From Gnetum montanum (taxonomy: Eukaryota; Plantae; Gnetophyta), in the NCBI GenBank assembly GCA_015680685.1, contig MNCI01001451.1, positions 424,723-488,722 on the forward strand: 64,000 bases of DNA. Reading direction: 5' to 3'. The stretch's first letter is position 1. Each line of letters begins with the position of its first letter. The notes under the pieces are model-generated. The model was not told where the DNA came from. It saw only the letters and a program-made list of their open reading frames with translations, and did not search any database. Shown here one piece after another: positions 659-59,213 of this stretch. The translations under genes were made by a program, and so were the position numbers.

Positions 659-700
659 GATAAGAAAGATCAGGCCACGATTTGGCAGTGAGAGATTTGC

Positions 701-973
701 TTGTTAAAGGCTCTTCCCATCGGGTTGGGGAGATTCCTTCTCTTGGGAGTTGGGTCACTACTCTTAAGGGTTCTTCCACTCCCATTGGAGCCGGTTAAGA
801 GGAAAATCCTCAAGGATAATAATGATAGCTTTAAGGTTTGCCTAGAAGCAAGGAAGGCTAGTAGGCCGAGCTTACAAGATCTCCATATTAAGGAAACGAA
901 GTAAGAGCTGGATTTAGGTATTCAAGGGACCCTCTAGGGAGTCTACAAAAAATGGTCTATTAGTAGACTATGA
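701..973 (+). pseudogene. LINE ORF1 C-terminal remnant
   Basis: The 701 frame reads through decay stops '...SRPSLQDLHIKETK*ELDLGIQGTL*GVYKKWSISRL*' and ends at TGA 971-973, overlapping the ORF2 ATG (ATGA). Confidence 0.6.
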
Positions 974-3900
974 AGATTCTCTCTTGGAATTGCAAGGGGT
1001 AGGGTACTCCCTATAAAAGAAATACCCTGAGGGATTTAGTTAGGTGGCAAGGTTGTGAGATTGTCTATTTGTAAGAGACCAAACTTCAAGCAATTTAGAG
1101 AGACCTCTTGCAGTGGCCAGGGTGGGTACTACTTTTTGTCGATTGTAGGGGATGGTTGGGTGGACTTGTGACTTTCTCCAGGGTCTCGATAGATTCTCTT
1201 GTGTAGCTCGAATTGCAGCATCACCACTTATCTTCTAGTTCAAGGCATTTGGCTCACAAATCTCTATGGTCCTCAATGTTGGACTGATCGTATCCATGAG
1301 TTATTTCAAATTACTGCTAAGATCCCTAACCATAATGCATGGATCTTGATTGGTGGCTTTAATTAGAGATTGTATGATTGGGAGAAACTAGGATGGGAAT
1401 GCATAGAGCCTTTGGGAAGCCAAGAATTTTTTAAAGTTTCTCCATTATTTTGGTTTAGTTGATTCAAAAATACAAGAGTACTAATTTCCATGGAGCAATA
1501 GGGGGAAAGGATTAGACTGGGTTCTATCTAGAATCAACTGGGTTTGGGTTAGCTTAGTGTTGGTTCTTAGCAAATGCATCTTAGTCATAGCTCAGGAGCA
1601 ATGGACCTCTGATCATAGTGTTATTATGTTCTTTTTAGGACATGGTTTGCATTGCTCCCCCACACTTTTGCTTTGAGAGAACTTGGCTTAGAAAGAGATG
1701 TTTGTGGAAGTTGGTGGAGGATATATGGATCTCTTATCCCAATCAGGAGGATCCTCAAGACTTCTTAAAACAAGGCCTACAATTGCTTAAGCAAGGGATT
1801 AGGAAGTTTGCTAAGGTAGATAAATACTCTTTTAAGGTTTTTAAAGAAGAATTGCAAAAGAAATTGCAATATGTGTAGGAGCAACAAGAAAAGGGTGAAG
1901 CTTTGGAGTAAGAGGAACATGACAATTTGGCATAGCTTCAGTAGCTTATGATAGAGGAGGCCTATTGGAAAGAAAGATCACACACTAAATGGTTGAAGGA
2001 AGTTGATTGGAACACAAGATTTTTCTTCATTGCTAACTCAGCCAAAGAGTCCAAGGCAATGCATTTTGTTAAAGGGACTTAGTTGTCCATGATCTTGAGA
2101 AAATTGCATAGGTAATATAGAACTTCTAGAAAGGAATCTACGGAAGGGGGGACTCTAGTGCTATCACAATCCCCATTCAATGGGTACTTGATTGTGAGGA
2201 TGATTATAGGCTTCTTGCCCTCTTGATGAAGCAAGAACTCTTAGATGCTATTCAGTCCATGAAAATTGGTAGGGCCCCAAGGCCTAATGGCTGGCCAATT
2301 GAATTATTTAGAGAATTTTTTGTCATCATGGGAAACAACATCCTTGACTCTTTCAATCTTGTGCTTAGATTGGAACAAATTAGGAAAGAGATTAGTTGTT
2401 CTAGAATTGTACTGGTGCCAAAGATTAGGAACCCCTCTTGACTTGTTGATTTCAGACCAATCAGGATCTGTAACATGTTGCTTCGATTGTTCACAAAGAT
2501 CCTTGTTAGAAGTGTGCAACTTTTAATGCCATCTCTTGTGGGGGTTCAGTAGGCAAGGTTCATCAAGGGCAGGTACTTTCAAGATCAAATCCTTCTATTT
2601 CATGAGATCATGCATTCTATCAATAGGGCAATATTCCTAGGTGTGTTCCTTAAATTTGATATAGCCTTGGCATATGATACTGTTAGCTGGAAATCTCTTG
2701 TTGAGATAATGTTGAGGAAGGGGTTTCACCCTAGATTTGTTGAATGTGTATCCACCTCCAAGTTATAGGTACCTTCTCGTTTTGGGAGGCTTTGGGGGTT
2801 TTCCTCCCCTAAATGGGGTCTATGCCAAGGGGATCCATTGTCACCTTATCTCTTTATAATTGCTATGAATACCATGAATCCTTATTGCAGGTTTCAAGGG
2901 GTTTGAGGCTGGAGATTGAAGGTTTTATCTGCATTGCAAGTCATTACATGGATGGCACAATCCTAGCACTGAAAGAAACAATGCCTCAAGCAAAGGTCAT
3001 TACAAGGTCTCTTGGCTACATGTTCTAGGAAATGGGCTTGGTTGTCAATTCGGACAAATTAGTGGTCCACTTTATTAAGATTGATAATGTGATGAAGGAA
3101 AGAATCAATAGAACCCTATGGATTTGGCAAGGAACTTAGACGGACTCTTATCTAGGGATACCAATTTATACTTGGGGTTGTAATGGGACTTGGTCTCATT
3201 TCATCTAGAGAGTACAAACTAGGCTTGAGTAGTGGATATCTAAATTCTTAACAAGTAAGGGGAAAATCTTGCTGGCCTCTTCAGTCCTCTTTGCTGTGGC
3301 GAGGTACATTGCATTGGTTGCTTCCCACCTAATTAAGTTATCAACAAGTTAACCAAATTATCAGGTATTTTATTTGGTCAGGTGGGAAAGGAGGTACTAA
3401 ACTACATTTAGTTTGTTGGAAGAAAGTAGCTAGGCCAAAGCCTATTGAGGGCCTTGGAGTGTTAAGCATTGAAGATTCAATCATGCTTGGGCATCATGGT
3501 CTCATTAAAAGGATTTCTAACAATAACCTTGATGAAGCACCATGGATTTCAATACTAAAAAGGAAGTACCAACCATGTTGCATCCAGTAATAATTCTAAT
3601 CTTTGGTTAAACATTTGCTTGCAATTTCGTACCTTGAGTCAACTCATTTGTGAGCCAACTGCAAGCCCAAAGGATGTCATGCAAGACAACTACAGATCCA
3701 TTCCTAGGTGGCAGAATATTTGGAAGGGCAAATTGTAGGAGAAAGTAAATATGTTTAGTTAGCTCATATTTCAAAGAGTGCTCCTAGTTTGGAAATTTTT
3801 CCATGAATGAAGCTTTTTTATTAATACAACCTGCCCTTTCTATTAGACGGATTGTGAGACCCATCAACATTTCACATTGCTCTGCCATTTTGTTGTCCAC

Positions 3901-4080
3901 ATCTAGCAGGTTGCTAGTATTATTTCCCCTCATCCGCTCCATGGACACTCACCTATAGGTGCTATTCTTTGGCTTTTGTTGAGAGCAAGGAACAAATACA
4001 TCTTTTGGAGTGCCTCCTTTTCCTCGCCATCACAAATTGTTGCGAGTGGTATTTGCTTTGGAGAGAGGCTTTTGTTGTAA
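970..4080 (+). pseudogene. LINE ORF2 (APE endonuclease, reverse transcriptase, zf-RVT), degenerate
   Basis: Motifs in order: MKILSWNCKG (970), ETK, GGFN, SDH (~1608), RAPRPNG, IVLVPK, DFRPI, YMDG (YADD position, ~2946), YLGIP, FIWSG, CPF...ETHQHF...C, and ILWLLLRARNKYIF. The frame ends at TAA 4078-4080. Confidence 0.93.
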
Positions 4081-5550
4081 TGGGAGTGACACTGACTTTT
4101 GAACTAGACTATGAAGTCTTCCAATAGAATCATGCTCTCTTGGAAATGGTGAGCCATGTGGGTTGGATGTAGTTCTTTTCCCTCATGATGAGGGATCCTG
4201 ACTTGGAGGATGAGGTGTCTTTTGAACATTGGAGAGGGGACCAAATGCACTTTAGGGGTGTTTAGATTATCCTCATTGAGGAGGTAATTGCTTCTTACTT
4301 GGGGCTTCTAATGGATGGAGAAATTGTGCTTTCCACAAAAAGGGGGCTGTAAGATGTGGAGGATTTCTTTAATGGGCTGGTCCTAGAAACCTCTAGTGGG
4401 CAGGTTTCCAAATCAGCATTGTTGGCCATCTAGTAGGAGGTGTTTGAGTTACTGGATAGGTTTGTTGTTCAATCTAGCAATGTTTGGAAGCTCCAATGAG
4501 TCCACCTTGCCTTCTAGTGATGCCTACAATTAGGCTGGTAGGTTAACCTACCAAAATTCTTCCTTCTGATGCTCAAAAGGTGCAAGAGAGGACACCACTT
4601 GGGGCACATTCTAGCCCTTCTAGTCTATAGCGAAGCTGGTGGGGGGCTTTGTTGTGGAGTAGCCTTGGCATTGTTTTGGGGTTGTTTACTTGTGCAGGAG
4701 TTATCTCCAGGAGGGGGCATCTTCCTTGGCTACTCTAGCGTGGTTAGGGCTGTGTTGGAGTGGATGAGGTTGAGCTGACTTCATTGGATAGTATGTCAGA
4801 CCTCTTCTAGGAGTCAATGATTGGGCAGCAAGACCTCTTCTAGGAGTTGATGATTGGGCAACAAGACCTCTTCTTGTAGTGTCTAAAGGAAAAAACGGTT
4901 GATATTTGCAAGGAGTTAGAGGCCAAATTTACTTCTGATTTGAGCAAGGCCATGGCTAAGGTTGAAACTTGTGTTTAGATTGAGGAGTAGGCCAAAAGAG
5001 AACTATAAGAGAATGAACGAAAAAGGGAGGAGGAGCTGCATCATCACAAGTAGGAAGAGGATAATCGCCAAAGAATGTTTCGGGAGACTATGCTCTAGAG
5101 CATGTTGGAGGACTAGCTCATACAATAAATTAGGGAAGACCTATGTAGGGAGGTTGAAGAGCAATATTTCATGGAGGCACAAGAGGAGGCCTAGAGGGTC
5201 AATGACTTCTTGGAGGAGGAACAGATGTGAAAGAGTTAGGATGTGCACATGAATCTGATGCCAAGCGCTGGTTCTAGACAAGGAGATGTCCATATGTGGT
5301 TATGGAGGTTAACAATAATGTGTCCTAGGTTGGGCTATGCAAATTTATTAGGAGTACATCTAGTGGCCTTCACCTTGACAAGGCAAGGCACATAAATAGG
5401 AAGGCACAGGCCTAGCGGGAGGAGAGATACAAGGAATTTTAGGAGGTTATGGTGTTTGTCAAATTGGAACCCTATCAAAATATTCTAGATGTTGTCCATA
5501 TGCAAGATATGCCATAGTGCACTTGCGCCAAATTCCCATATCCTATTTAA
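4080..5550 (+). pseudogene. Putative LINE ORF3: plant-transposon 'env-like'/Transposase_32/PMD-like domain followed by a coiled coil, degenerate
   Basis: ATG 4080 overlaps the ORF2 stop (TAATG). One frame from 4080 to 4778 reads MGVTLTFELD...EMVSHVGWM*FF...SFEHWRGDQMHFRGV*IILIEEVIASYLGLLMDGE...LGW*VNLPKFFLLML...HHLGHILALLV. After a frameshift an E/K/R/Q-rich helix follows (~4760-5240). The 3' end is approximate. Confidence 0.7.
4797..4873 (+). repeat. 33-bp in-frame tandem duplication inside LINE ORF3
   Basis: GACCTCTTCTAGGAGT(C/T)(A/G)ATGATTGGGCA(G/A)CAA occurs twice plus a partial third copy. Confidence 0.85.
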
Positions 5551-6572
5551 TGGTTTTGTGCTATTGCTTCTGCCATGGTTTTCGTATTAGATTCTTGAGG
5601 TTTTTGGATTTTGTCTTCGACAATGCTAATCATTCAGCTATGATGCATCCACTAGGTTCCACTTTCTTTTGTATTTGTTTTCTACCCAAGGATGTAGCTA
5701 GGAGATCTTCCAACCACATTTTTTGTAACTAGAGGTAGGGTGGGTTTCCCACCTCCCTTACCTCTATGTCCCATTTGTTGGTAGGTATCTCTTCCTTCCA
5801 ATGGGGGTTTCCTCCCCACTGATTTGTACAAATTTTTGGGTTGTAATATAATCCTTAACCTTTTTTCAGAAGAAAAAAAGGATAAGAATGATCAAATGGC
5901 AATAAAGAATCCAGATAAGACAGGAGCTCCTATGTATATTTTTATTACTAGAGAAAGCAGTTCAGAAAAATAACTTGTAAGGCAAATTTTTCCTTATCTA
6001 ACAAGAATATTATTAATTCAAAGATTAAAAGTAGTGTCAACAAGAAAGTTATAGTTGATGACAAAATTCTTGACATAAGATTAATAACAAGCGATGAGGT
6101 GAAGATCTTCAACAAGTGCTACCACTTTCTTGCTTTCGAACAAATATTGGTATTAACTACAGCTCTCTATCTTGGATCCTTTTGCTATTTTAAGTTCAAG
6201 CATAGATATTGAAAAGTGATGTAAATTTTGTTAGGATTAAGTCCTTCATCCCTTCTAATAATTGATGTTTTGCACTTATTTTTTTCAAAGTATTAATTGT
6301 AAGATTTTACACCTGAGTGAGCAGTCCTAAAATTAAACAGTTTTTTCTTTCAATATTTTTTGGATGATGTTTACTTAATGTCAAGGTTGTGATGTACTCT
6401 AAATTCTCTTTGCTCATTATTCATATTTTTTTGGGTTCAGGCACCACCCCGTATTATCTATAAAAGCTAACAAGGAATTATTCTTCCCTGATTATTTTGC
6501 ATGACATTTCTTTTAAATTTTGCAGCATTGTATTTCATATATTTACTTATGTTTTTTTTCTTTTTTCTCCAG

Positions 6573-7100
6573 ATTGATTAGTGTGATTGAAGCGTTGAAA
6601 GGAAATAAAAATTTTTGGAGACTCAGCATTGGTCAGTATCAATGTTGCGACAGTTTCAGAATTTTAGGTTTTTACTATAGCCATAAGTTATTTCACATTT
6701 TCTAAATCGCACACATCATAATTTTTTTTCCAGGGATAGGAAATCCCCCTGGAACTATGGATCCAAAAGCTTATGTGCTTCAATGTTTCACTGATGCTGA
6801 ACGGAAAAAGGTGTATTCTGTTGCATGCATTATGGAATTTTCACAAATTTTTGTATCAAACAAAATAGTGATTGCAATTTTCGTGTAGACACTTTCTCCT
6901 GCAGTCAGCTAATCGGTTTTTGTTGGCAGCAGGTTGATACGTCCCTAGAGGAAGGTGCGGACGCAGTGAAGATGGTATTGTCAGAGGGCTTTTCTGAAAA
7001 TGTCGAACTATTCAATAGGAGGCAAAAGTACAGTTATTTTAAAATTGAAGAAAATCTGCACAAGGCCAAGAAATTTGAAAATGTGATTATGGAAATTTGA
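6573..7100 (+). CDS. CRS2: Last three coding exons (6573-6631, 6734-6810, 6933-7100) of a peptidyl-tRNA hydrolase / chloroplast group II intron splicing factor CRS2-family gene; 5' exons presumably lie upstream of the window
   Basis: GT-AG introns with consistent phases give (G)LISVIEALKGNKNFWRLSIG-IGNPPGTMDPKAYVLQCFTDAERKK-VDTSLEEGADAVKMVLSEGFSENVELFNRRQKY..., matching the plant PTH/CRS2 C-terminus (RLSIGIGNPPG.MD...QKY). There are no internal stops. CRS2 versus organellar PTH paralogue cannot be settled by eye. Confidence 0.85.
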
Positions 7101-19620: not shown

Positions 19621-19967
19621 AATGTAGACCATACACCTTTCCTAATTTTTTGAAGATTAGGAAACACTTGCATTGTTGACATATGTTTCCTATTCACTTA
19701 TCCCTATGCCCATAGTTGTGTAGCCTTCACTTTTGTTTTCTTAGCCTAGTTTAACCATTATTTACATGTATCATTTTGCCTTGCATTAATTTACCTTGTT
19801 TTAGCTTTATTTCACACATACCCTATAGTTTATCCTTATTTACAATTCACCTTTTTATGTCCTATCTATTCTTAAACATAAAACATAAAATATACCGTAA
19901 AAATTTTAAAACTTAAAAAATCTGTATTTTTTTTTAAAGTAAAACTTGTAAAAAATTTCTTTTGACG

Positions 19968-20370
19968 CATGGCTTGTCATGGCCTAAAACTGGCAAAAAC
20001 ATGCATGGCCTAAAATTGGCAAAAACATGCATGGCTTGCTATGGCCTAAAACTGGCAATGCATGACCTGCTAAGGCCTGAAACTAGCAAAGTGATGACCT
20101 GCTAAGACCTAAAACTAGAAAAATTATGGTCCATCATGGCCTAAAACTAGCAACTTGCATAGCCTACTAAGGCCTAAAAATAACATGATTATGGCTTGCC
20201 ATGCCCTAAAATTGGCAATGTGTACAACTTGTTAAGGCCTAAAACTAGCAAAACTATGGCCCACCATGGAAAATTGGCAACATGCATGGCCTGCTACGAC
20301 CTAAAACTAGCAATGCATCGCTTGCCAAGGCCTTAAACTGATGGCCTACCAAAGCGTAAAACTGATAACA
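19968..20370 (+). repeat. Tandem array of ~13 units of ~26-33 bp inside element D
   Basis: Consensus ATGGCCTGCTAAGGCCTAAAACTAGCAA plus a short variable linker. A lone copy lies at ~25356-25385. Confidence 0.9.
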
Positions 20371-31378: not shown

Positions 31379-34300
31379 ATCTTCTTTTGTTCTATGTCTA
31401 CCAGATCCTTATCTTCCTCATCATTCAACTCAATGGAATGATTAGGATCAAGAAATGGTGGTAGATTAAGAGCCTAGTCATAATTTGCCATGAGTTTAAG
31501 CACATTAGAAGTCAAGTTGTAGTGAAGCTTCCATTTGGGATAGGCTACCTTATAATTTGTGAGGATAAGTTCACTAGAAAAAGATTGATTTTTGTGAGAT
31601 CTAGTAGCTTCTAGATTTTGGAGATAACTAAAGCAGATAATGAAGCCTTAGTAATAACTATAGAAATTCTATGATTTCACAATGCTATTAACAGTGTATC
31701 AACTTATGTTTGAAAATAGGTTTGCACTTGAAATAGAAGATGAAAGAATTCAGTTTCAAAGGAAATGTTGAGATCATAAAGTTTTGACATAACATTAAAA
31801 ATTTTAACATGACATGTCAAAAAGAATTATCAATAAAAGCTATCTAGAAAACAATATAGAAGTCATGGAGAAAAAATGATGTGGCATCTATGTGTTAATG
31901 TGACATCAATAGCACTTAGAAAAAAAGGAAAAAAATAGCAAAATATAAGAAAATGCTGTAACTACAAAAAATTTGGAATAGAGAACAATCCTAAAAAACA
32001 TTTAATTCTATAGAGGTCCTTCCTCTAGGGTTAAAGATGTTGTAGTAGGAATAGTCATAACAAATGGATACCAACACAACCTAATATAAAAATTGAGCTA
32101 GACAATTCATGATCATCAAATGGTTTAGGAAAACTAACTTTTTAGATAATCTTCCTTAAATCAAAAGGAAACTTGGGGATCAAAGGATGGATCCAACAAT
32201 CCAAGCTAGACATTTAACCAACATTAGCAAGTATTAAGCAAAAACATCATGTATATGAAACAAGCACTAGAAAATGCATAAATAGAGGAAAAACACAATA
32301 TAATGTAGATGTATGATTGGTAGTAGAGAAATGCACAAAAATAGTGTGAAGCAAATCTAGGAAAAACTAGATAAAAAGATCTAGAAATATAAAAGCCCAC
32401 ATTACAACAAAGAAAAGGGAGGCTGCAAAAAATATATTCTGAGACATGTACCAGAGATTAGAGGCATCTGACGAGAAGCTATGTTACCTTGTTCTTACTT
32501 TGATGAGTGCATTGATGTAGATCTAATAGAAATAGTAGCAAATTTAGTGGATGATAATTACAAAGAGGAGATTGAATCAGTGGGTTGACTTGATTTTTAG
32601 CAAATCTTCATGTATTAGGAGGATAGTATGAAGGAGATATAATATATCAGCAAGGAAAAGTGGAAAAGTAGAAAGAGAGCTAAAGTTGCTTAACCAATCT
32701 CTTAGAAGCAAAGCACTTGTTATCATAATATGAGTGCCAAATTCAAAAAGCCAACTAGATGGTTATAGATGTTAACCCCTTTAGATTTAGAGGTGTCTTC
32801 CTATATATATGTTAGAAATGCCTTGTAGACTATGTAGGAATGATGTAGTGAGGCCCATAGAATCTTTTGAAAACTTCTAGAAGGTCCTAGATAGGAGAAG
32901 TGATGCAAAGAGTAAATTTTGATGCTAGACATTGAAAGCTTGACATAAGACATTAAACGCTAGAGACAAAAGTTGATATTAGATGTAGAAAGTAATTTTG
33001 ATTCCAGACATTGTATATTTGACATAAGACATCAAAAATAACTTGAGACAATATGTTAGAAGCTAAATATGAAATTGACGCTAAAGGTGATGTTGAATGT
33101 TGAAACTGGGACTAGTGGTAAAATGATACTGTAGATGATGTGAGACATTGAAACTATAAGAGGGGCTAAAATGATTTGATACATGACACAAGACATCATT
33201 TCTAGTGAGTTGAAGATAGGATGCTAGAAACCATGGTACAAATTATGTGAGATGTTGAAACTAGACTACTAAAGATGGATTTAAGTGGAAGAAAGTTATT
33301 AGAATGTACTCAAATATCTAAATTAAGCTAAAAATACAAAGTAGGTACATCTAAAAAATTAAAGAATGAAAATTTTTCAAGTATTGGAGGTGATGTTGAT
33401 GTCGTATTAGTGTCACCCCTAATTCCTACCTATGTTACCTAAGATAAAGCTACTTATTACCCATGGTATTGACCCAAAAAAATATCAAATGGCTCATCTA
33501 TAATATTCTTATCATCATAGACATCAATTTTTGGCATTTTGGAAAGTTCATGCCAAGACCTTAAAAGACATAATTTTTCTAACTCTAGGTGATGTTGATG
33601 TTGATGCCAACATCAAAATTAGTGTCACCTATAGAAACTCTCTTAAAAAAACCATATTTGATGACATTTTGGGATTCTAAAAGTCTCTATTAATTGTTCC
33701 TAATCATTCTCAAAAGTATGGACTTCATTTTAATCACTTTTGATAGTATTTAGAGGACCCAAATTGAGGTGTTTTTAGCAAAGTAATGCTAAGCTAGCAT
33801 CAGGATCACCTATAGAAATATCCTCTAAAACACCATCTATGGTAGCATTTTTGGGTTTTATAGGCCCTTGGTGATGGTCCCTAACCATTTTCAAAAGGAT
33901 GAGCATTATTTTAGGTACTTTCGATAGCATTTGAAGGCCCAAACTAAGGTGTTTTTAGCTAAGTGATGCTAAGTAATGTTAAAGCTTATGTTAGCATTAT
34001 CATTAGCGTTACCTATAAAAACATCCTTGAAAACACCATCCATGTAATCATTTTATACTTATACAAGTCCTTCGTAATGTATCCGAACCATTCCTAGAAG
34101 GATTGGCCTCATTTGTAGCACTTTTAGCAAGATTTGGAAGCCCAAATTGAGGTGTTTTTACCTAAGTAATGCCAAGTGATGCTAAAGATAGCATCAAATT
34201 CACCTATAGAAACACCCTCAAAAACACCATTTTCAATAGAATATTTAGCTTTTATAGGCTTCTAGTGATGGCTTCCACACATCCCCAAAATAATGAACAT

Positions 34301-35363
34301 TAGTTTGAGCACTTTTAGCAACATTTAGGGGCCCAAACTAAGGTATTTTTTGACTAAGCAATGCTAAGTAATATTGAAGCTAGCATTGGTATGAAATGTA
34401 AAAACACCATTTTTAATAGATCTTAGGCATCTAAAAGCTCCTAATAATGGCTCCTAGACATTCTCAAAATGACATACATCAATTTGGGTAGTTTTAGCAA
34501 GCTTTGAAAGAGTTGAGATGGAAAATTTTTTAAAGTATCTTCCAGTGATGTTAGAAATTATTTATAAGTGTCATTGATGGATGCTAGAAAATTTCTCTAA
34601 TTATGGAATAAGAGGAAATTCATGCTAGCATTAGTGTTAGCATTAGTAGCTAGGTTAAAATTTTTCAGCTTATGGTTAGCACCAAAGTTAGAATTTTTCA
34701 ACAGTGTCAACACTAGAATTAGAATTTTTTAGCTTAGCATCAACACCAAAGTTAGAAATTTTTTAGCTCAACATTAATATTAGAGTTATATTTTTTTTAT
34801 TATCCTACTTCATCTCCAATCTCATCATTCAAATACTTCTCACCTCTAAAATCCAACATTTTGACTTTGTTCGACTCTTAATCTTTCCAACTACTAATTA
34901 ACATTTTTTCCAAGGTAACAAATGTTAATTTTGGTAGATATGGAGGTAGTTTTAAGGGCTAGGACTAAACCTTTTTCTAATTATGGTAGGTGGTATTGAT
35001 TCCAACATTATTCAATAATTGAGGTCATTTCCAAAGTCCACAAGCTCCTTGACATCCTAATAGCATAAATTGGCATCACTTTGAGTATTAGAAAGAGTAT
35101 TGAAGGCTTATAATTATAATTTGAAAAATGTTAAAATTTTTTTTAAGTCCTTGGTAACATCAACACCTAAAACATAAAAATATTTATAAGTAGTGGAAAA
35201 AGATGATACTAACACTAGTATCAATAGAAGAGTTCGAATTGTTTAGCTCAACATTAGCATCATAGATATAGTTTTTTCTATGTTAGCATTACCTCCTATG
35301 TAATCCTCATAATCCAATTTCCCAAGTCAAATATTTCAAGATTAAACTTCAAGTTAATTTCAC
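31379..35363 (-). mobile_element. Probable 5' region or LTR of element E; it resumes at ~52951-53350 beyond element F
   Basis: Joined to the minus-strand gag through element D's TSD. Its TTAGAATTTTTTAGC repeats (34620-35290) reappear at 53210-53290 on the other side of F. No clear PBS or LTR ends were found. Confidence 0.45.
33590..34520. repeat. About five degenerate tandem units of ~180-200 bp
   Basis: CACCTATAGAAA...AAAACACCAT...CCCAAA.T.AGGTGTTTTTA recurs at ~33626, 33807, 34010, 34201 and ~34395. Confidence 0.8.
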
Positions 35364-40257: not shown

Positions 40258-41017
40258 TGATGAGCCACGATCTCGTGTCCTACCTCATCTTTTATAAATA
40301 AGAGGCAGCACCCTTTATTCAAGAGAGTTAGACGTAGACCCTTAGCCAGATTCTTGCAGCTTTGTTATTCCAGAGTTAGAATTATTTTTGTGTGCCCACA
40401 GTAGAAGTCATAGAGTGAACAGATCTTTATTCGAGAAATTTGTACCTGAGCATAGTTTTGTGTACAGCAATAAAGACAAACTTTATGATAAACCTTGTAG
40501 CATACAAATGAAGCTAATTAGTAATTAATGATTGTTTAATGCTTTCCTAGTTAATTAGTATCTCTCTCAACCTTCAACCCCCTTAGTTAAATACACTCAG
40601 TACGACCACTTCGAGCATGCATGTAGCACTTGGTAACCTAGTAACGATTAATGTTTGGTAATCCTAGCAGCGTTGCATTGGTTCAGGATGTGTACAAGAA
40701 GTGGGAACGGATACTGGTGTTAGGAACATTTAGAACTTAGTTAATGAATAGTTAATGTAAGTTAGTCACTTAGTTCTCTCTCCCTTTCTTTTATTAGCAG
40801 GAGACATAACTAGACAAAAAGCTATAAAAGTCATATACCTTAAGCTTACTTAACCATACAACTGTGACAATACAAGTTAGTTTGGGAAGACAACAATTGA
40901 TTAACCCTGAGTGTTCCATTAAGGTGTGTAAGCACCTGGTCCTTGGAGTTCAACTGGATCGCATGTGAATTGGTTGTATTCGTATGGTTGAGTGTAGGGG
41001 TACTTTGCCACTCATCA
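40258..41017 (+). repeat. Element B 5' LTR
   Basis: Direct repeat of 46217-47022 but 46 bp shorter, lacking the GATATC palindrome block. TATA-like TATAAATA at 40293-40300. Confidence 0.95.
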
Positions 41018-41161
41018 TTGGTGCCATTGCCGGGGACTTAGTTTTTTGTGTGCTGCATAGAACATAGGAAATCATTCATATCATTGGAACGTTAGAATGA
41101 ACCCTTAGGGCTAATCAAAGAAAGATAAGACAATGGTAAATTGCACACCAAACAAGACAAG

Positions 41162-44100
41162 ATGTCTTCTTCTTCGCATAAGAGCACTTCACCGCCTATG
41201 ACTAACACAAGAGGAAGTCGGCGACATAATACACATAACTAGAATCTGCCAGTTCCTTAATAGTTTCGTGTGGTATATACTCATCCCAATGAGTATGCAC
41301 CCGACTTCACCTTTATTCTCCACCAAGATGAACAACTGCGTTGGAGAGCCTTGGAGGTTAACATAGTGTTGCCTCCAGACCGATCAGTCCCCAACATGCT
41401 CCTTCGTGCTCTCTCACGAATAGGCATGCTGCTTTTATATGCAAAATATGTTGCATGCTATCATGACACAAGGGACTATCATCCCACAGAAATGAAACGT
41501 CAAAGGGACTTACGACAAGAGAGATACCATACATCCTTGAAGGGTAAATGGTTGCATGACGCTCCACACTTTTTGAGCAAAATTGAGAATGGTGAACTTG
41601 CTTCAACAAGTTCCCCACGAAATGATGTTCCTCCTCCTAACAATGATGAAGAGGTAGTGTATCAGAACCTCCACTCCACTATTCACAACCTTGGTTTTGA
41701 TACCCATGAACACGAAGTGTTCAACAAAGGAACACAAACACACGATAAGGGTAGATGTTCTGATCGTGATCACGATCGTGGCTGAGACCACTGAAGAGAA
41801 GGTAGAAAACACCATCATGGTGATGGTTCTCCTTCTTCTTCACCTTCATCGTCACCTTCACCCTGTCCTTCAGTGTCCGGATGCAGTCATAGGGAAACCA
41901 ATTGTGAGGATAAGGGAAAACAAAGTGAAAAATATTGATGGAACAGTCGAGAACGAGGATGAGGGCACTCTAAGGAATTAAGGCATAGAATAAGGGAGAG
42001 TAGGGAACCGCATAGACACCATAGACGATATGAATGAGATGATCATGAAGAATCCCTACTCGCAACTAGAAGCATGCTAGATATAACAGAGGCCGTAAGA
42101 GTTCCAACACGGCACCAAAAGGATAGTAGGATCAAGAGGTTAGACATGAACAACATCCCACGATTTGAAGGGGGATGCAACACTGATCCTCAAAATCATT
42201 TACAAGCATTTCACGATGCATTTGCCTTGCAAAACATAGAAAACAAATGGAAAAAATTGAAGTTGTTCCCAAAAATACTAGTGAAAGAAGTTGAAAGCTA
42301 GTACCGGTCCTTAGAACTGTAATTTATTCAAAGGTGGAGTACAATGTTAGAACTATTCAATGATAAGTACCAAACATACTCCCAAGTGTCTAACTTGTAG
42401 AAGAAAATCCAAGGATAGAAGCAAGGAAATCATGAACCCTTGGATGTTGCCATGGACTGCTATTACACATTGTTACATCATTGCCCTAGCCATCGTTATT
42501 CGCAGTGGGATCAACTACACCATCTCATGGATGGAATTAGGCATGAAACAAGAAGAACCCTTGGGACGTATGCCCAAGGAAGGTTATCAGAGCTTAGGTC
42601 TCATCAAATTCATTGATTGCTAGAGCAGGTAGCTAAAGAAAAAGGTGAGCTATGAAAGAGAGAAAATGCAAAAAAATATAACCAAGATCCTTCCCTTTGA
42701 AAAAGAGGAGTGAGATTTTGTGAGGAGGAAGAAGAGTCACCACTCGAAGAGATGGTGAATAGGAAAAATTTTCCTCTCCAAAAGTTAACAATAGAAGTAT
42801 CGGCAAAGGTAGACCAAATGTCGGACTCCTTGGATAGTAGGTTTGAAACTGTTCTTAAAATTGTAGAGGAGTCTAGGGAAAGAGGTAGTGATCGTGACAA
42901 AAAGAAAAAGAGAGAAGTGGAAAATGCACATAACAAGGGTAAGGGTAAAATGGCCATCACAGAAGAGTTTGTGGATTTAGACACAGACAATGATAGTGGA
43001 TGCGAGATATGCCAATATAATCATCCTAAGGGATGTTGCCCAGTGATCTCACATCTACAAGAGTCTGAGGTGTATGCACTTAACCCACGACTAAATAAAT
43101 AGCAAACACCCTGACAGTTACCTTATCCCCAAGGTAACCCAAGGCAGTTCCACCAACCTTCAACATATTATCCAAGTGGAACTCCACCACAACCCATTGA
43201 GCAACATCAATAGTGGTAATACCCACAGTCATGGGGGATGCCACCACCAAGGCAAGAATACCCCTACTGGCAACCTGACCCATATGGCTACTACGTGTAG
43301 CATCCAATCTCTCCATGTGACTCTATTAGTCACATTACATCACAACATCACTACCAAGCCTATGAGTATTATAGAACTCCTTCTTCTAGGGAAGATAACC
43401 CACAAACATACCATCCTTCAAATCCATCTGCAACTCTCACACCAATAACTCCATTACCATCCGCTCTAGCAATGCAAGGGGAACTCCCTACTCACCCGCA
43501 ACAACGCAATGCTGCAAGGGCTGTAAATCCTCAACTCGCTGTTGGTTTTGATAACCATATGAAGAAAAGACCTTTCTTCAAAGCCAACAGTCCAACTAAG
43601 CCCTTACAACCACAAGCGGTTGAACCTCTGAATGCCTCCCCATCAAATAAGGCTTCAGAGCTGCCTTCGAACCAAACATTGAGCTGAACGCATACGGTTA
43701 TGTTAACACATGCCGTTACTAACTGGATTAAGGTTGACCACCTTCCCAGCAAATTCTCTGATCCTGGAAGCCCCCTAATCTATCTCCAAATCGCTAGGAT
43801 TGAGCGATGCAAAGCTCTTCTAGATTCAGGTTTTGGAGTTAACTTAATATCACAAGAAATGTACAAAGCCTGGAACCTGCCTCCATTAAAGAAGAGTAAT
43901 ATTCGCCTAGAGTTGGCCAACCAATCCATCATTGTTCCCTTGGGATTGGTGGAGGACATCATCACCACTGTGTGTGGGTGGTCGTACCCAGCTAATTTCC
44001 TAGTGATACAAGTGAATAACGGTAAAGGGGACTTCCCAATAATAATGGGAAGGACATGGCTAAGTACTATAGATGCACGCCTAGGTATTCATGATCCTTC

Positions 44101-44218
44101 CATGGAAATATCTAAGGAGAATACTTTTGGAAAGATCAAGAAGAAGAAGGTTCCATGCATCCCATACAGTGTACAGGGTGCAATTGCATGCAGAAATCAT
44201 GGGTTGTGCAAAGTTTAG
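41162..44218 (+). pseudogene. Element B gag (long N-terminal extension) and aspartic protease
   Basis: ATG 41162. Gag KLKLFPKILVKEVES*YRSL...HHCPSH. Zinc finger CEICQYNHPKGCC. Athila-type protease DPGSPLI...ALLDSGFGVNLI...LELANQS...PIIMGRTWLST (ORF 43700-44218). Confidence 0.9.
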
Positions 44219-46216
44219 CATTACTTGTATGCAATCGGTGTGCACAAGACATTAAGATACAAGAGTGCCTGTATGCAGTGGTCACACAACATGAAGACAC
44301 CTAGTGGCTAATAGCTGATCAAGATAGCAACTCACTAATGTGCATGGAACTAACTGAGCCCTCAGTTCCTTTTAAAGTTTTTTTTTACATATTTTTGTTT
44401 TACAAATTTCTTTAAATTTTCTTGTTTTTATTTTTTTGTTTTTGTCTTTGTCTGTTGTTTTGATTTTGTTAGATTTTTCACCTAATAAGTGCTCCTGATG
44501 GTGGTATGAACTGTATTTTATGGATTGCTAATGTTTGGTTTTTACCTTTGAGTTATAATGTTGATACTAAGGTATGGTTCTTTTGATATAATAGGCAATG
44601 AGTTCATGTCATCCATGCATCCATGAATTTCTATGATCTCTCTTGGCTTGGAACTGTATAGTCCCTTTCTTTAATAATAAAACTATTTACAAATTGGTGA
44701 TTGGGCATTTCTCAAACTAAGGAAGGATTGAAGGATTGAAAAGGATGTGACTTCAAAGGGATTTGATGCATTTTTGCTGGCTATTCTCTTAGGTGTTTGG
44801 ATGTTTTCTTCTTGAGTTTTCCTTAGCATTCCAACATTGCTCCATTATTGGGAAGCTAAGCCAATAAAAATAAGTCTTTGCATGGTGTGGTTGTCACGCA
44901 GAAAAAAAAAAACAAAACAAAACAATGAGAATTCAAAGCACACCCCTTAGAAAAAATAATCATCTGGGCTACAAGCATTGGTTATGGAACTAAACAAACA
45001 TGTTCCCTCTAACTAAGGCGCTCTCTCACTTCCTACTTTTCCCTTTTTTGTTTCCTCGGAATGGAGGTGACTCTTTCATGAAAGCATTCTTGTTACTTCA
45101 AGTGGATGGGTTGGCCGAGTGTATTAATGCAAAGTCACTAGAAGTGGATTGTTTGAGGCTGGATTTGGAATGAGATCTACTCAGTCACATTAACCATAAA
45201 TACATAAGGGGTTGTACACCACCTTGTTCTTAGGACTCCATTCCATTCTCTTCTCCCCATCATTATTTCTCCATTTTCCACCTCATTGCCAGTTATATTA
45301 GTCGTCTATATTTTGGTTGATGCATTGTTTTCTCCTTGGTGAATTCTTAGGGTTAAGAATTTAACTCTTGCTTCCAAATGACATTTCCAGAGCCTATGAA
45401 CTCTTTGAATGTGGGATTGTCAAGGCATAAAGGGCATGAGCGTGCTTTGGGGGGGATCCACTAGCATTCCTATTTGGTGCATCAATTAACTTCTTTCCCT
45501 TAAACATTCCTGCAATCAACATTTGTTGAGTTCATTCCCATCTCTGACATCCATTTTATCAGCGTTGCCATTGTTTCTTTTTCTCCATATTTCTTATTCC
45601 TTATGTTTTTCCATTCTATCACTACCGGAGGATTGCTCTTAGTCATGGGGGCCTTGGTCCAATTTTTTTAATTTTCCTAACCCCTACACCTTGGGTAGTC
45701 ATCAGTGTTATATCTCTAGAATCCATATTAGCCATATCACAACTCAGCCAATGGACCTTACACCGAGGCAAGGTATCAACTATATTATGATTTACTTATT
45801 TTTGCTCATATGTGATTGTGTTGTTTGTGCAGATTGAAATTATACAGCAATGGACTGGACGTACAGGAAACACTCAGGATGGACTGGTGCTAGAACAGTT
45901 GTCCAAGGAACAAGACTGATGACGCGGTTATAGATGGACAATGGAAGGCGCAATCCTGGCATCGGTAGCAACATGCCTTTTTCTTTTTTCTCTCTCTCTC
46001 TCTCTTCTCTCTCAGCTGCTAAATAAGGCTGGATGTCAATTGTGTATAGTGTTCATTCTTGTAGTCATGAATACTAATATTGTCATGTCTTGTAATGATT
46101 GATCCATTTACACGTCATCCCATTCACCATTAGTTTTCATTCAAGTAAATAATCCCATACCTTCCCAATATTTTGTAAGGAACTCAAGGACAAGTTTTCA
46201 TTCAGTCATGGGGGTA

Positions 46217-47022
46217 TGATGAGCCACGATATCGTGTACGTGATATCGCATTCGCCACGCGATATCGTATATGCGATATCACGTCCTGCCTCATGTTCTA
46301 TAAATAAGAGGTAGTGCCCTTTGTTTAAGAGAGTTAGACTTAGACCCTTAGCCAGATTCTTGTAGTTTTGTTATTCCAGAGTTAGAATTATTTTTGTGTC
46401 CCCATAGTAGGAGTCATAGAGTGAACAGATCTTTATTCGAGCAATTTGTACCTGAGCACAATTTTGTGTATGACAATAAAGATGAACTTTATGATAAACC
46501 TTACAGCATATAGATTAAGATAATTAGAATTAATGATTTTTTAATGCTTTCCTAGTTAATTAATATCTCTCTCAACCTTCAACCCCCTTAGTTAAATACA
46601 CTTAGTACGACCGCTTTGACTATGCGTGTAGCACTTGGTAACCTAGTAATGATTAGTGTTTGGTAATCCTAGCAGCGTTGCATTGGTTCAGGATGTGTAT
46701 GGAAACTGGGAACAGATACTGGTGTTAGGAACATTTAGAACTTAGTTAATGAATAGTTAAGGTAAGTTAGTCACTTAGTTCTCTCTCCATTTCTTTTATT
46801 ACTAGGAGACATAAATAGACAAAAAGCTATAAAAATCATATACCTCAAGCTTACTTAACCATACAACCATGAAAATACAAGTAAGTTTGGGAAGATAATG
46901 ATTGATTAACCCCGAGTGTTCCATTAAGGCATGTAAGCACTTAGTCCTTGGAGTTCGACCATATCATGCATGAAACACTCATATTCATATGGTTGAGTGT
47001 AGGGGTACCTCACCACTCATCA
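46217..47022 (+). repeat. Element B 3' LTR
   Basis: Direct repeat of 40258-41017, followed by TSD ATTAT. Confidence 0.95.
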
Positions 47023-52945: not shown

Positions 52946-53886
52946 TCCACTTAACTATAGGGTTAAATTTGAAAATGATAAGCCTATGAATATGGGATTA
53001 AAAATAAATGGATTTTCTATTAAGCTCTAGAAAAATTTTATAGAATTTGAGAGACCAAGAGTATGAACATCTACCTTCCTAGCATCTTCCACATGCTCAA
53101 TGACCACTACAACTTGTCATGGTAAATCATGAGTTTAGTTCAGCAGCCAAGTCCACAATAGTCTAATCATTGATCTTAACACAATGTCAACATTAATTTG
53201 GTAGTACTAACATCACTATTGTAGACTTAGAATTTTTTAGCATCAGTGTTACTTCTCTAGAGTTAAAATATTTTTAGCTCCAATGTTAGTCCTAGGACAC
53301 TTAGCCAAAATATCCTTGTTTTAGCTCCAAATTGATTCTAGATAATTTCTATACTATTTTTATCCATATATTCATCCTATAAAGATTTTGTTTCACTTCA
53401 TTACTTATAAATTGATCCTTTATTATTAGTTTTATCTCCCTTATGTTTTTTTACTAATATTTGTAACTTTGGCCCCCCATAGGATGTAAACATTTATCAT
53501 TCACTTAATTATGCATCTTTATTATTTGGAAAAAAATTGAAATCCTTTCTCTTATATTAAGCTCATGGATTAAGTATTTCAACACTTAATTATGGAGGTG
53601 TTCTTGTGAGATTGAGAAAGAACAATTTTGTAGAAACATTACCATTATCAATAACCTTCTTATTAAAAATAGTTTTAATATTTTAGTTAATAGTATTCCT
53701 ATTAGATGAGGAAAGTTTTTTATATCAGCTAATTGTCAAAGTTGATTAATACTCTCTCTAGCATTAATAAAAATATATGAGCTTTTATCTTATTTGGGTT
53801 CTTTATTATCATTTGATCATTCTTATTGTTGACATTAACTTGATTTTTCATATTTTCAACTTCATATTAATTTTTATCTTCAATGT

Positions 53887-54653
53887 TGATGAGTGGCGAG
53901 GTATCCCTACACTCAACCATACGAATACGAGCGTGTACACACAATTTGGTCAAACTCCGCAGATGAGGTGTATGATATTTGTCACATATGGTTTAGTCCA
54001 GATGAGGTGTATGATATGTTCCTAATTCTAACGCTACTCCTGAAGGCAATGGAAAAGAATATTAACTAAGCCAAGCTAGGAGAAAAAGGTAAGAAAATAT
54101 AATCTAGCCTAAGTGCGATGAGGAACCGATTCCTTGATCAACCGTACACATATTGGACCTTGTGCATGACTACCACTAGGATTACCAAGTGTAGATCCTA
54201 GGTACGCCACTGGGCTACCAAGTAGTCACACTTAAATGCTCGTAATCAAGTCGTACTCGTTCTGCATTCTAGGAGTTTAAGGGTGAGAGAGAGAAAACAG
54301 TAAATAACATTAAATAAATAAACAAAAAAATAAATAACAAAGTGAATGCTACAATGATGAAGTAATCTCGATCTTTATTGCTGGTCATGTACATGTCCAA
54401 GTATGCCACACTTGAATAAAGACACCGTACAATCACATTCACCATACTGCGGGCAAACACGGGAAAATAAACTATCTGTGGAGTGGCTAAACTACCAAAG
54501 CTTCGCTACTTCTATTCTAGCATGATGAACAAGGGAGAGCTACTTCTTATTTATAAACATTGCGGCGCACTGTGATATCGCGTACGCAATATCGTAGGGA
54601 AGACGCGATATTGCGTACGCGATATCATGGCCTATGTGAATCACATCTCATCA
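53887..54653 (-). repeat. Element C 3' LTR
   Basis: Highly similar to 59214-60024 apart from two indels. Confidence 0.95.
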
Positions 54654-54820
54654 TACCCCCACGACTAAATAAAAACTCGTCCTTGAGTTAAAAAGAGAAC
54701 AAGTTCCATTTATTACACAGTGGATAGCTATGGGATTATTAACTGGAAAAAGAAATAAAATGATGCCACAGTGTGGGAAGACACAACACAGAAAAAATAC
54801 TACACTACAAAAAATGGAAC

Positions 54821-55421
54821 TCATGTAGTTCCTGGTGGTGGTGGCTCCTCCATGGGTGCTTTCCCTTTGTCATGTGCTCTAGACTTTGAAACTTGATGGC
54901 ATTGAAGTATGGCCTGTAGTTTCTCCTCTTCAGTCAGAGGGTCTTGTGTGCCTTGGCGTGCATGTAAGTTTGCACTTATGCCATAGAGGCATCCCAGTTA
55001 GCCTTCTCTTTTTCTTCCGCCACCCTTTTATTTTCTGTCAATAGTTTATTAAGTTGCTTGGTTCTAAAAGTGTCCAGCTAGTTCTAAGCAACCTTTGGCC
55101 CTGTATTCGGAAGGTTTAATACTTCCAAAATGGCTTGAACAGAGAAGTCAACAGTCACACCACAATTTTCAACCATGGTGTCTTCTTCTTTATTGTGCCA
55201 AAATTGGTACATTTCCCCTAAGTACCGGCACCGCTTTCAGAGAGGGTATCTCCTACTTTTGCTTGCCCGGACCGTATGGTAGGAGGATCTTCTTAATGAA
55301 TGCTAAATGATTGTTCCTCCTATTTTGCATGTTGTCCGGTAGGATCTTGTCTTCCACCTCTCTGAGATCGTTTGATCACACCTTGAGTAGGACCTTCTTG
55401 TTGTCCACGGTTCAGGGCCAT
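54821..55421 (-). pseudogene. Element C truncated env-like ORF, preceded by a splice acceptor
   Basis: CTAAT...GTGATTGCAG|ATG at 55421. The ORF contains EMYQFWHNKEEDTMVENCGVTVDFSVQAILEVLNLPNTG and ends DKGKAPMEEPPPPGTT*. Confidence 0.6.
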
Positions 55422-56786
55422 CTGCAATCACACGGGACCAATCATTAGTAAGGTTGTTACCAAAGGTAGGTTATACCTTACTGCTTGCCTTAATAGATTT
55501 ACTTTATTTCTGTGTGATGTTAATTATTGGAAGAACATGTCTCCAAAAGATTATAGTATTGAGTCCTCTTTTCTTAGGTGGTTTCCAAATTTAATTTTCT
55601 GGTATAGCTAAGGGGATAAAATTGTTTTTGACACATTTTATTCTTAATTTTAGAACAAATTACCCTTAAAGATGTTCTTCGGGTGATGATGAATTTCAAA
55701 AAATTTATGCACTATTTGGCATGTGCCGCTCCCCCACGACTAAACTGAACACTCTGGGGTCAAGTAGGTTCAAACGGAATGAAAATCGGAGTACCAGCGA
55801 GCGAGTTATGGATATGAAAGCAAGGGATGCGTAATTGCAAGTTGTAGAGAGAAATTTGAAAAACTTCCCTTGCATGAACAGTTGCAAATAATGTGGATTA
55901 GCATAGGGGCTTCATGTATATATATATTTTTATTGAAGTTAGGGCACTTAGAGAATGTACCGAATTTTTAATATTTCTTTGAAATTAAATGATGTAAAAT
56001 AAGGACATATGGATAATTATTAAAGGGTTCTCAGGTAATTAGATGGTTTTAAAGGCACGAATAATGATCTATGGGTTTTATCAATAAGGACCTTAGGTGA
56101 TAGAGAAAAAGGCTATGTGATGATTCATAGGGACGTTGAATTGGAGGAATAGTAATAAGGGAAAGAATATCTTGAACAATACACCGAGGGTAATAAATGG
56201 TGTGTATGAGCTAGAGAATCAGTGAAGATTACAAAAACTTACACAAGTGGGTCCTCCCCAAAGCAGGTTCCAACCTATAATGCCCTTGTGTAACCACACT
56301 TAAAGTGTTCGTGGGCACTAGAAGGGTTAAATGTAATCCGAACTAACTCCACAAAACACACACATGTAAATATCATCGGAATGAGATGTAAATTCTATGC
56401 TACATGGGACACAAGCTACAATTACATGAACAGTGAGGTGAGATGAACTGAAGAAAGGGATCGGAGAGATTAGGACATGAGGTAACTGACCCAGGGCATA
56501 ATGAATTCTGCGTGTAAAGAATGATTAACATGTCATTAACCCATCGTTCCAAGATTAGGACCAAGTCCATCCTTCTAATAAGTGACATCGCAGTGTTTCA
56601 TCCCATGATAAACAACTATGAGAGTACCATAACAACAAGGCGTATGATCACTTGGCGTTTAGTACAAGGGAGGAGTGATTTTTGTTTTATGGCACTTCCT
56701 TTTTCTTTTCTCTTTCTTTTTTTTTCACTTTACTGAATCTAGAGAAATTGCCAACCTTCAGGCATGGGTGCATGTCTTTCCAGTGG

Positions 56787-57404
56787 NNNNNNNNNNNNNN
56801 NNNNNNNNNNNNNNNNNNNNNNNNNNNNNNNNNNNNNNNNNNNNNNNNNNNNNNNNNNNNNNNNNNNNNNNNNNNNNNNNNNNNNNNNNNNNNNNNNNNN
56901 NNNNNNNNNNNNNNNNNNNNNNNNNNNNNNNNNNNNNNNNNNNNNNNNNNNNNNNNNNNNNNNNNNNNNNNNNNNNNNNNNNNNNNNNNNNNNNNNNNNN
57001 NNNNNNNNNNNNNNNNNNNNNNNNNNNNNNNNNNNNNNNNNNNNNNNNNNNNNNNNNNNNNNNNNNNNNNNNNNNNNNNNNNNNNNNNNNNNNNNNNNNN
57101 NNNNNNNNNNNNNNNNNNNNNNNNNNNNNNNNNNNNNNNNNNNNNNNNNNNNNNNNNNNNNNNNNNNNNNNNNNNNNNNNNNNNNNNNNNNNNNNNNNNN
57201 NNNNNNNNNNNNNNNNNNNNNNNNNNNNNNNNNNNNNNNNNNNNNNNNNNNNNNNNNNNNNNNNNNNNNNNNNNNNNNNNNNNNNNNNNNNNNNNNNNNN
57301 NNNNNNNNNNNNNNNNNNNNNNNNNNNNNNNNNNNNNNNNNNNNNNNNNNNNNNNNNNNNNNNNNNNNNNNNNNNNNNNNNNNNNNNNNNNNNNNNNNNN
57401 NNNN
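56787..57404. other. Assembly gap (618 N)
   Basis: Run of N. Confidence 1.
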
Positions 57405-59139: not shown

Positions 59140-59213
59140 TAAGTTCTTATATAGTGACCTTGTATAATATAACTAATCTAGATAACTAGCACCATCCCTG
59201 GCAACGGCGCCAA

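Follow-up and report, generated by a model that had tools for sequence, protein, structure and literature searches.

A decayed L1-clade LINE in Gnetum montanum with a candidate third gene behind ORF2

We analyzed a 64,000-nt stretch of Gnetum montanum DNA (the window). Its + strand, to which all features below refer unless stated otherwise, carries a 5′-truncated, decayed L1-clade LINE (673–5880) flanked by 14-bp target-site duplications (TSDs; 659–672 and 5881–5894), which pair with one mismatch. A paralogous empty site in the window (53643–53883, − strand) has a single copy of the target, in agreement with the TSD-bounded element proposed in an initial annotation of this DNA. The joined, empty form (joint 658>5881) was found in contigs of all four DNA runs. 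Contigs of four of four DNA runs (four organism labels, four studies) covered all 30 bins of the element, which rules out an assembly artefact; no second copy of the element was found within the 64,000 nt. The element has TSDs and a 3′ A-rich tail and lacks LTRs, as L1-clade LINEs do. The annotated A-rich tail is present at its 3′ end (5868–5880), although it is short; one X13 contig has three extra A there. The preceding T-rich 3′ UTR (5551–5867) shows no codon periodicity and contains a modestly stable predicted hairpin (5690–5860; z = −2.16, with 8 of 200 shuffles equally good).

The 5′ truncation has left only 300 nt of ORF1 (674–973), the gene in which plant L1s carry DUF4283/zf-CCHC or RRM, and this piece has no Pfam match. 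This remnant ends in an ATGA overlap with ORF2 (970–973), as annotated, and the junction is family-wide in related contigs. In loose-end consensus sequences of these contigs (51–58 per run, three runs shown), the ORF1 frame was stop-free and its last 30 nt fitted best in register (18/30). ORF2 (970–4080) is decayed and comprises an AP endonuclease domain from 970 (PF03372, E 0.006), a reverse transcriptase (RT) domain at ~2090–2900 (PF00078, RVT_1, E 1.5e-13), and a C-terminal CCHC-type zf-RVT at ~3690–3900 (PF13966, E 1.2e-6, above cut-off). Judged by this sequence, with an N-terminal AP endonuclease, a LINE-type RT and zf-RVT, ORF2 is that of a plant L1-clade LINE. Its database relatives were 81 L1-type proteins with 23–39% identity, mostly plant L1-type as judged by domain sets. 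ORF2 has a W..RN..F motif 20–25 codons upstream of its stop and ends where the ORF2s of RNase-H-less plant L1s end. RNase H was excluded downstream of zf-RVT: there was no Pfam match, and a profile built from 20 RNase H-bearing ORF2 tails (PF13456) gave a best E of 0.24 across six frames of 4080–5600, whereas the same profile detected the zf-RVT of the window at E 2e-8. The frame behind ORF2, for which RNase H had been named as a competing identity, is thus not RNase H.

Behind ORF2, ~1,470 nt (about 490 codons) has the appearance of a decayed gene, here called ORF3. At the junction (4078–4089), the stop TAA (4078–4080) shares an A with an ATG (4080–4082), giving the annotated TAATG (4078–4082), and a second ORF2-frame stop, TGA, follows at 4087–4089. 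Coding signal is present from the ORF2 stop onward. The N-terminal part (4080–4640, ~185 codons, decayed), a putative globular domain, had a codon-position chi2 of 30.1, equalled by 4% of 199 background tiles. A charged, helix-type segment (4802–5227; E+K+R+Q+stop, 46%), which follows a frameshift in this copy, reached 50.9, a value found in 0 of 263 background tiles. The C-terminal part (5221–5550) follows a second frameshift and ends at a TAA (5548–5550). Periodicity was not significant for 4640–4800 alone (p = 0.91) or 5221–5550 alone (p = 0.15). Of the charged coiled coil annotated as running to ~5550, a charged segment and a terminal TAA were confirmed. A tandem repeat at 4798–4874 consists of 2.3 copies of a 33-bp (11-codon) unit and preserves the frame. 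An independent base-frequency model derived from unrelated loci selected the same three frames as the initial annotation, including that of the C-terminal part, and chose the ATG frame within 4020–4470.

The ATG frame had been described as running for ~230 codons with decay-type stops. It is readable to 4778 (233 codons, 11 stops), but it is uncertain beyond ~4640, and the proposed frames show no shortage of stops (26 in-frame versus 23 and 33 off-frame, in 434 codons). Only the type of stop, not the number, is informative for the ORF3 frames. TAG made up 21 of the 26 in-frame stops, compared with 18 of the 56 off-frame ones (Fisher p = 5e-5), although this test is partly circular because frames 2 and 3 were first picked by eye; frame 1 alone, which is fixed by the ATG, gave 7/10 in-frame versus 10/27 off-frame. 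All five stops in the C-terminal part were TAG, and ORF2-frame stops had a TAG share like that of ORF3 (19/24). These observations support that the 3′ region decayed in coding fashion, as ORF2 did.

We found diverged copies of the element in related contigs. The X8 contig (4725 nt; the same copy is in X1, 2903 nt) matched 2840–3023, 3348–3703, 4174–4281 and 5151–5665 at 78–85%, with spacings of 327, 469 and 1437 nt versus 325, 471 and 1448 nt in the window. From RT through to the 3′ end, this copy is ~80% identical to the element and colinear with it, and its ORF3 region is as conserved (81–82%) as its ORF2 pieces (78–85%), with spacing off by 11 nt in 1.44 kb. The 3′ coding-like region is therefore integral to the LINE family, as had been proposed, and this family member, matching to 5665, does not end soon after ORF2. 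A nested or adjacent independent insertion was rejected because the diverged copy is colinear and there is only one TSD pair. A second copy, ~82% identical over 3964–4335, was present in X1 and X8. Among the 13 best-supported differences in the assigned frames, four replaced an in-frame stop by a sense codon (binomial p = 0.006), compared with one in each of the other frames, and the stop at 4170 was a sense codon in two contigs per run. The diverged copy kept the frame across one 3-nt indel (24/30 matches at offset +3). The 81% copy lacks 1 nt at 4279, and a listed difference at 5167 creates a stop if taken alone. Over 4086–4310, the 39 listed differences showed no signal of purifying selection (14 synonymous and 25 nonsynonymous) and no third-position excess (16/39, p = 0.20). 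No intact ORF3 was found among the copies seen. Because all of these are decayed, tests of ORF3 need family-level sequence. Contigs piled up at 4304–4340, over a motif flagged in the initial annotation; we gave this no weight, since short matches can arise by chance and depth does not measure copy number. Reads over 4040–4360 numbered zero in X20 and one in X17, the latter resembling the 81% copy; neither counts as expression evidence.

The junction itself varies. The 81% copy is identical to the window over 4078–4082 and has an ATGA at 4086–4089. In a third contig, CT replaces TA ahead of the ATG (CTATG), and the ORF2-frame stop would fall about 7–20 nt past the ATG. TAATG is therefore not invariant, since one of the three distinguishable copies lacks the TAA. 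In addition, TAATG alone is weak evidence because TG directly follows 12 of the 75 TAA within the element. The exact overlap had been taken to argue for an integral third gene; the region does belong to the family, but the argument from the overlap is weakened.

The ORF3 product had been likened to Transposase_32 (PF20167) and PMD (PF10536) proteins. We found no Pfam family at E ≤ 1, and none at E ≤ 10 with seven pieces, for a decayed query with X at stops and with HMMER filters that drop weak matches. The 5.8-billion word search yielded 213 near candidates, none at E ≤ 0.01, and 1021 longer ones, none at E ≤ 0.1. There were no hits among 1.84 billion representatives (E ≤ 1e-3) or PDB sequences (E ≤ 10), and no relatives in viral contigs, metagenome contigs or the 81 L1 proteins. 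A single-sequence structure model was unusable (mean pLDDT 36.6). PMD/PF20167-type motifs were not found when the loci, window and proteins were scanned. With no homologue or family for ORF3, direct testing at this sensitivity did not bear out the proposed link. Among 79 plant L1 loci from metagenomes, no ORF3-like region was detected (best E 0.45). An ATG-ORF of at least 100 codons at the ORF2 stop was found in 0 of the 21 plant L1 loci with at least 270 nt downstream, a criterion that misses decayed ORFs, including that of the window. Long ORFs 3′ of other L1 loci were ordinary neighbours (Transferase in L072, HSP20 in L076, B3 in L052), and those behind L044 and L075 had no match.

L1 LINEs are regarded as two-gene elements in which variation concerns the domains of ORF1 or those fused to ORF2. 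Those of plants have ORF1 and an EN-RT-zf-RVT ORF2, to which RNase H is fused in some (PMC5203782). The present element shares with them the EN-RT-zf-RVT order, the W..RN..F end, TSDs, 5′ truncation and an A-rich tail, but it differs in the ~1.5-kb coding-like region in a new frame behind ORF2, and its RT is only 23–39% identical to its best database relatives. In the literature searched, we found no description of a plant LINE with such a third gene. A stop-start overlap between consecutive LINE ORFs also occurs in SART1, a Bombyx R1-clade LINE with UAAUG translational coupling (PMC3894237); SART1 couples ORF1 to ORF2, whereas here the second overlap lies 3′ of ORF2 and varies among copies, and the coupling is putative. 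Extra coding capacity was likewise stably gained at the 3′ side of LINEs in insect TRAS/Jockey elements, where a viral SF1 helicase is fused to ORF2 (PMC6338049), but those are enzyme domains of known origin, whereas ORF3 has a separate frame and no recognisable origin. Plant LTR retrotransposons and MULEs also carry accessory ORFs (reviewed in PMC7264820). Among these are the env-like/Transposase_32 (PF20167) ORFs of Athila, of which that of Athila 14 has 487 aa with PF20167 at 133–312 (PMC11728184). PMD (PF10536) is reported for Gypsy and MULE, the only carriers named in the text consulted (PMC5418596), and is described as attaching to chromatin at DNA motifs and counteracting silencing (bioRxiv 10.1101/2024.09.27.615353). 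Like these accessory ORFs, ORF3 is in sense orientation, has ~490 codons, lies behind a polymerase gene, occurs in several copies and resembles their motifs by eye; unlike them, it is carried by a LINE and has no Pfam match.

We weighed other explanations of the 3′ region. A coding fragment from an LTR-element accessory ORF or host gene may have been captured once by a master element and have served since as its long 3′ untranslated region, the ATG near the stop arising by chance. The absent purifying-selection signal (14:25), the TG after 12/75 TAA and the non-invariant TAATG fit such a capture, and L1 3′ transduction is established (PMC7264820). We nevertheless consider it unlikely, because the ORF3 region is conserved at the level of the ORF2 pieces with a spacing difference of 11 nt in 1.44 kb, the coding signal starts at the ORF2 stop, and the deep pile-up expected of an abundant independent source at ≥80% identity was absent from every bin in 4200–5650 (depth is a rough measure). 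The idea that ORF3 is a true third gene acting in the RNP, either as another coiled-coil RNA chaperone or as an adaptor steering integration, rather than in anti-silencing, draws on the long charged helical segment and the coiled coils typical of ORF1 proteins (PMC5203782). It is distinctly improbable given the element's own upstream ORF1 with a family-wide ATGA junction, the low amounts that a third place in a reinitiation chain would imply, and the lack of an RRM or zinc-knuckle Pfam match.

It is very improbable that ORF3 extends the C terminus of ORF2, whether by frameshifting, by read-through or by fusion in the ancestor, and that the TAA arose by decay. One diverged contig does lack the TAA, deamination can turn CAA into TAA, and in plant L1s domains (RNase H) have been added at the same place (PMC5203782). 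However, there is the second ORF2-frame stop at 4087–4089, the 81% copy retains TAATG and adds ATGA at 4086–4089, no canonical slippery heptamer was seen by eye at the junction, and, as weak evidence, no longer fused protein was found in the 5.8-billion word search. Env-like ORFs have been described for Athila/Bagy-2 LTR elements, and ORF3 is likewise a sense ORF downstream of a pol-like gene, with a hydrophobic 19-mer (Kyte-Doolittle 2.0) at 4638–4694 in the ATG frame. An env-like membrane protein is still the least probable reading of all: the 19-mer falls where the frame is uncertain and periodicity is lacking, LINEs to our knowledge form no particle, and there is no Pfam match.

On balance, we favor a dead, 5′-truncated plant L1-clade LINE with a likely third gene behind ORF2, which would be translated by restart and encode a predicted nuclear, anti-silencing accessory protein. 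The element probably represents a three-gene version of the plant L1 plan that is new, with a putative function for the third gene. Ancestral ORF3 was quite likely a single open frame (4080–5550). Its translation by termination-reinitiation, as for ORF2, seems somewhat probable: ribosomes would restart at the ORF2 stop, and as third in the restart chain ORF3 would yield little product, more in keeping with a regulatory than a structural role. As a predicted nuclear accessory protein, this product may have helped the element to resist silencing. Action on chromatin like that of the PMD/Transposase_32-type proteins of LTR and MULE elements is a tentative suggestion, based on a resemblance of motifs judged by eye that none of the searches bore out. 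Slightly more doubtful is the full scenario of a long-lived plant L1 lineage that turned tricistronic through a PMD/Transposase_32-related chromatin protein, with a separate third gene, a second termination-reinitiation and thus a LINE-borne counter-silencing gene.

If true, the stable presence of a third gene downstream of ORF2 would alter the two-gene L1 plan and mean that ribosomes reinitiate twice in succession on a single eukaryotic mRNA, and ORF3 would be a new accessory protein without a detectable relative in 1.8 billion representatives. Were ORF3 PMD-like, it would bear on the origin and role of PMD and env-like transposon ORFs; a relationship to PMD/Transposase_32 would show that this domain family has passed between LTR, DNA and non-LTR elements.

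The LINE occupies positions 673–5880 (+) of the window, between target site duplications GATAAGAAAGATCA (659–672) and GATAAGAATGATCA (5881–5894), and ends in a short A-rich tail (5868–5880). A single host repeat supplies both flanks. A paralogue of this repeat at 53643–53883 (−) has the flanks joined and the target present once, and contigs of all four DNA runs likewise joined about position 658 to about 5881. This indicates that all sequence between the duplications is one insertion, as the initial annotation had assumed in describing a TSD-bounded element. The target itself (560–672 and 5881–6000) is an AT-rich repeat of very high copy number (summed depth 3,500–43,000), further copies of which lie at 53643–53883 and 60031–60574. 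Peptidyl-tRNA hydrolase-like host-gene exons lie 0.5 kb downstream on the LINE's strand (6430–7040, +; PF01195, E = 0.012 for 6721–6828, model positions 130–157, with one of four pieces matched), and a long intron probably houses the LINE. In addition, a hairpin with purine/pyrimidine-rich arms in the 3′ UTR (5690–5860; z = −2.16) may be a reverse-transcription recognition element.

Elsewhere in the window, two related LTR-bounded elements (40268–46827, +; 53887–59656, −), with LTR pairs 88–93% identical, contain gag (PF03732, E = 1.4e-13) and a weak aspartyl protease match. Neither had a long reverse transcriptase (RT)-type ORF among the ORFs listed (the second contains a 618-N gap), and they are possibly non-autonomous; a 173-aa ORF ahead of gag in the first (41264–41782) had no Pfam match. 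Degenerate tandem arrays with periods of about 32 bp and about 190 bp were found at 19953–20317 and 33610–34381, respectively.

Only 300 nt of ORF1 remain ahead of ORF2, with no Pfam support, and the ATGA overlap of the two ORFs reported earlier is present at 970–973. A loose-end consensus of related contigs (51–58 per run, three runs) fitted the final 30 nt most closely when in register (18/30) and was stop-free in the ORF1 frame, and because of this the overlap seems general among the L1s of this host. Summed contig depth at 924–1105 was 2,700–6,000, compared with 20–60 in adjacent bins; very many L1 copies in these genomes share, at ≥80%, the ORF1/ORF2 junction and the opening codons of ORF2, which may reflect a conserved signal there. 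ORF2 (970–4080) matched endonuclease (E = 0.006), RVT_1 (E = 1.5e-13), and zf-RVT (E = 1.2e-6). Its 81 database relatives were RT proteins, mostly plant L1-type by domain sets; because they were only 23–39% identical, coverage of the host lineage is probably poor.

We investigated whether the region behind ORF2 belongs to the family. Part of 3300–5900 was found in 16 runs (seven studies, seven organism labels), and contigs were compared at ≥80% in four DNA runs (labels A, B, C, and G), one of which may be the window's source; diverged copies recur between these runs, so the runs are not independent family members. A 4725-nt contig from run X8, whose copy also occurs in run X1, matched 2840–3023, 3348–3703, 4174–4281, and 5151–5665 at 78, 85, 82, and 81% identity, with spacings of 327/469/1437 nt versus 325/471/1448 nt in the window and a 3-nt frame-keeping indel near 4281; a second diverged copy spanned 3964–4335 at about 82%. 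These colinear and spanning copies indicate that the 3′ region travelled with ORF2 across about 20% divergence. A private transduction in this copy, against which the initial annotation had argued, is thereby excluded, and so is a nested insertion. An RNase H domain, which some plant ORF2s carry at this place, was also ruled out: a profile of 20 RNase-H-bearing tails detected the zf-RVT of the window (E = 2e-8), whereas its best match in 4080–5600 had E = 0.24. The ORF2 frame stops 20–25 codons past the W..RN..F motif, at about the position where plant ORF2s lacking RNase H terminate.

The ATG frame of about 230 codons described behind ORF2 was recovered as 233 codons with 11 stops from 4080, and is followed by frames at 4802–5227 and 5221–5550. 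Codon-position chi2 was 30.1 in the first frame and 50.9 in the second, compared with 16.7 for RT; 4% of 199 background tiles reached the former and none of 263 the latter, and 4640–4800 and 5221–5550 were each not significant alone. A base-frequency model trained on three unrelated loci followed the ATG frame from 4020 to about 4470, was ambiguous to about 4850, and then followed the second and third frames. Stops were not depleted (26 versus 23 and 33 in 434 codons), but their type differed: TAG, one transition away from CAG or TGG, made up 21/26 in the ORF3 frames versus 18/56 off-frame (p = 5e-5), and 19/24 in ORF2 frames. This test is partly circular because the later frames were initially picked by eye; in the ATG-fixed frame alone, TAG was 7/10 versus 10/27 off-frame. 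The assigned frames hold 13 of 40 listed differences between copies (1,442 further ones are unlisted); four of the 13 turn an in-frame stop into sense (p = 0.006), compared with one each in the other frames, and one would create a stop if taken alone. Within 4086–4310, the 39 differences (14 synonymous, 25 nonsynonymous; 16 at third positions, p = 0.20) gave no selection signal, as expected under dominant decay, and fit no selection equally well. We consider it likely that 4080–5550 is an integral, coding-derived third region.

The TAATG said to couple ORF2 to ORF3 is not invariant. A family copy of 81% identity, which made up 40% of the junction depth in X8, is identical to the window at 4078–4082 (among the 40 of 43 rows listed), has an A at 4086 creating ATGA with an ORF2-frame TGA at 4087–4089, and carries a 1-nt deletion at 4279. 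In a third contig (X1), CT replaces TA ahead of the ATG, giving CTATG; its register is ambiguous (15/30 or 17/30 matches at offsets 0 and +2), and in either register the ORF2 frame would stop about 7–20 nt past the ATG. The exactness of the overlap was thus a weaker argument than proposed, since TAATG varies and TG follows 12 of the 75 TAA in the element, but the ATG at the ORF2 end is kept in all three distinguishable copies. The proposed ORF3 end (5548–5552) also reads TAATG, with no codon periodicity behind it, probably by chance. UAAUG coupling is reported for SART1 (PMC3894237). ORF3 would be translated by termination–reinitiation at the ORF2 end, and we lean slightly towards such a translated third gene.

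As a control set, we used 79 metagenome-derived plant L1 loci (from the best 80 among 499 confirmed, the scan covering 4 of 64 parts). In 41 of them the end of ORF2 could be placed, of which 21 with ≥270 nt downstream were used, 19 shorter loci and L018 (a match from another element) being dropped. None of the 21 had an ATG-initiated ORF of ≥100 codons at the ORF2 stop (longest, 82), a count of intact ORFs only, which the window copy would itself fail. No ORF3 likeness was found among the 79 loci (best E = 0.45). Two plant L1 copies, L072 (3985–5538) and L076 (4621–5352), lie 150–300 nt upstream of another ORF on the same strand: L072 precedes an intact ORF for a BAHD transferase, and L076 one for a small heat-shock protein.

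The decayed ORF3 had no Pfam match at E ≤ 1 or E ≤ 10, and none in word searches of 5.8 billion proteins, HMMER searches of 1.84 billion representatives, PDB, or viral and metagenome contigs; a single-sequence structure model had a mean pLDDT of 36.6. By eye, residues ~28–83 (G-W..FF, E.W, H-F.G, I-L, L-G-L..D-G) resemble what we take to be the beginning of the plant mobile domain (PMD, PF10536) and Transposase_32 (PF20167), but the likeness to these two families suggested earlier failed the direct profile test at E ≤ 10. ORF3 has a charged composition in its second half, where E/K/R/Q/stop make up 46%; one hydrophobic 19-mer occurs at 4638, in a stretch of uncertain frame.

The initial observation was largely right. 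Literature searches listed no paper describing an additional ORF downstream of ORF2 in a plant LINE, and the novelty of this putative three-gene plan is provisional. Our leading guess, offered tentatively and quite possibly wrong, is that the ORF3 product would be a PMD-type nuclear protein countering silencing. It draws by analogy on Athila, whose accessory ORFs of similar size likewise lie behind pol and are predicted to be nuclear (PMC11728184), on PMDs carried by Gypsy and MULE elements, for which anti-silencing is proposed (PMC5418596), and on host PMD-C proteins, described in bioRxiv 2024.09.27.615353 as countering Polycomb at DNA motifs.
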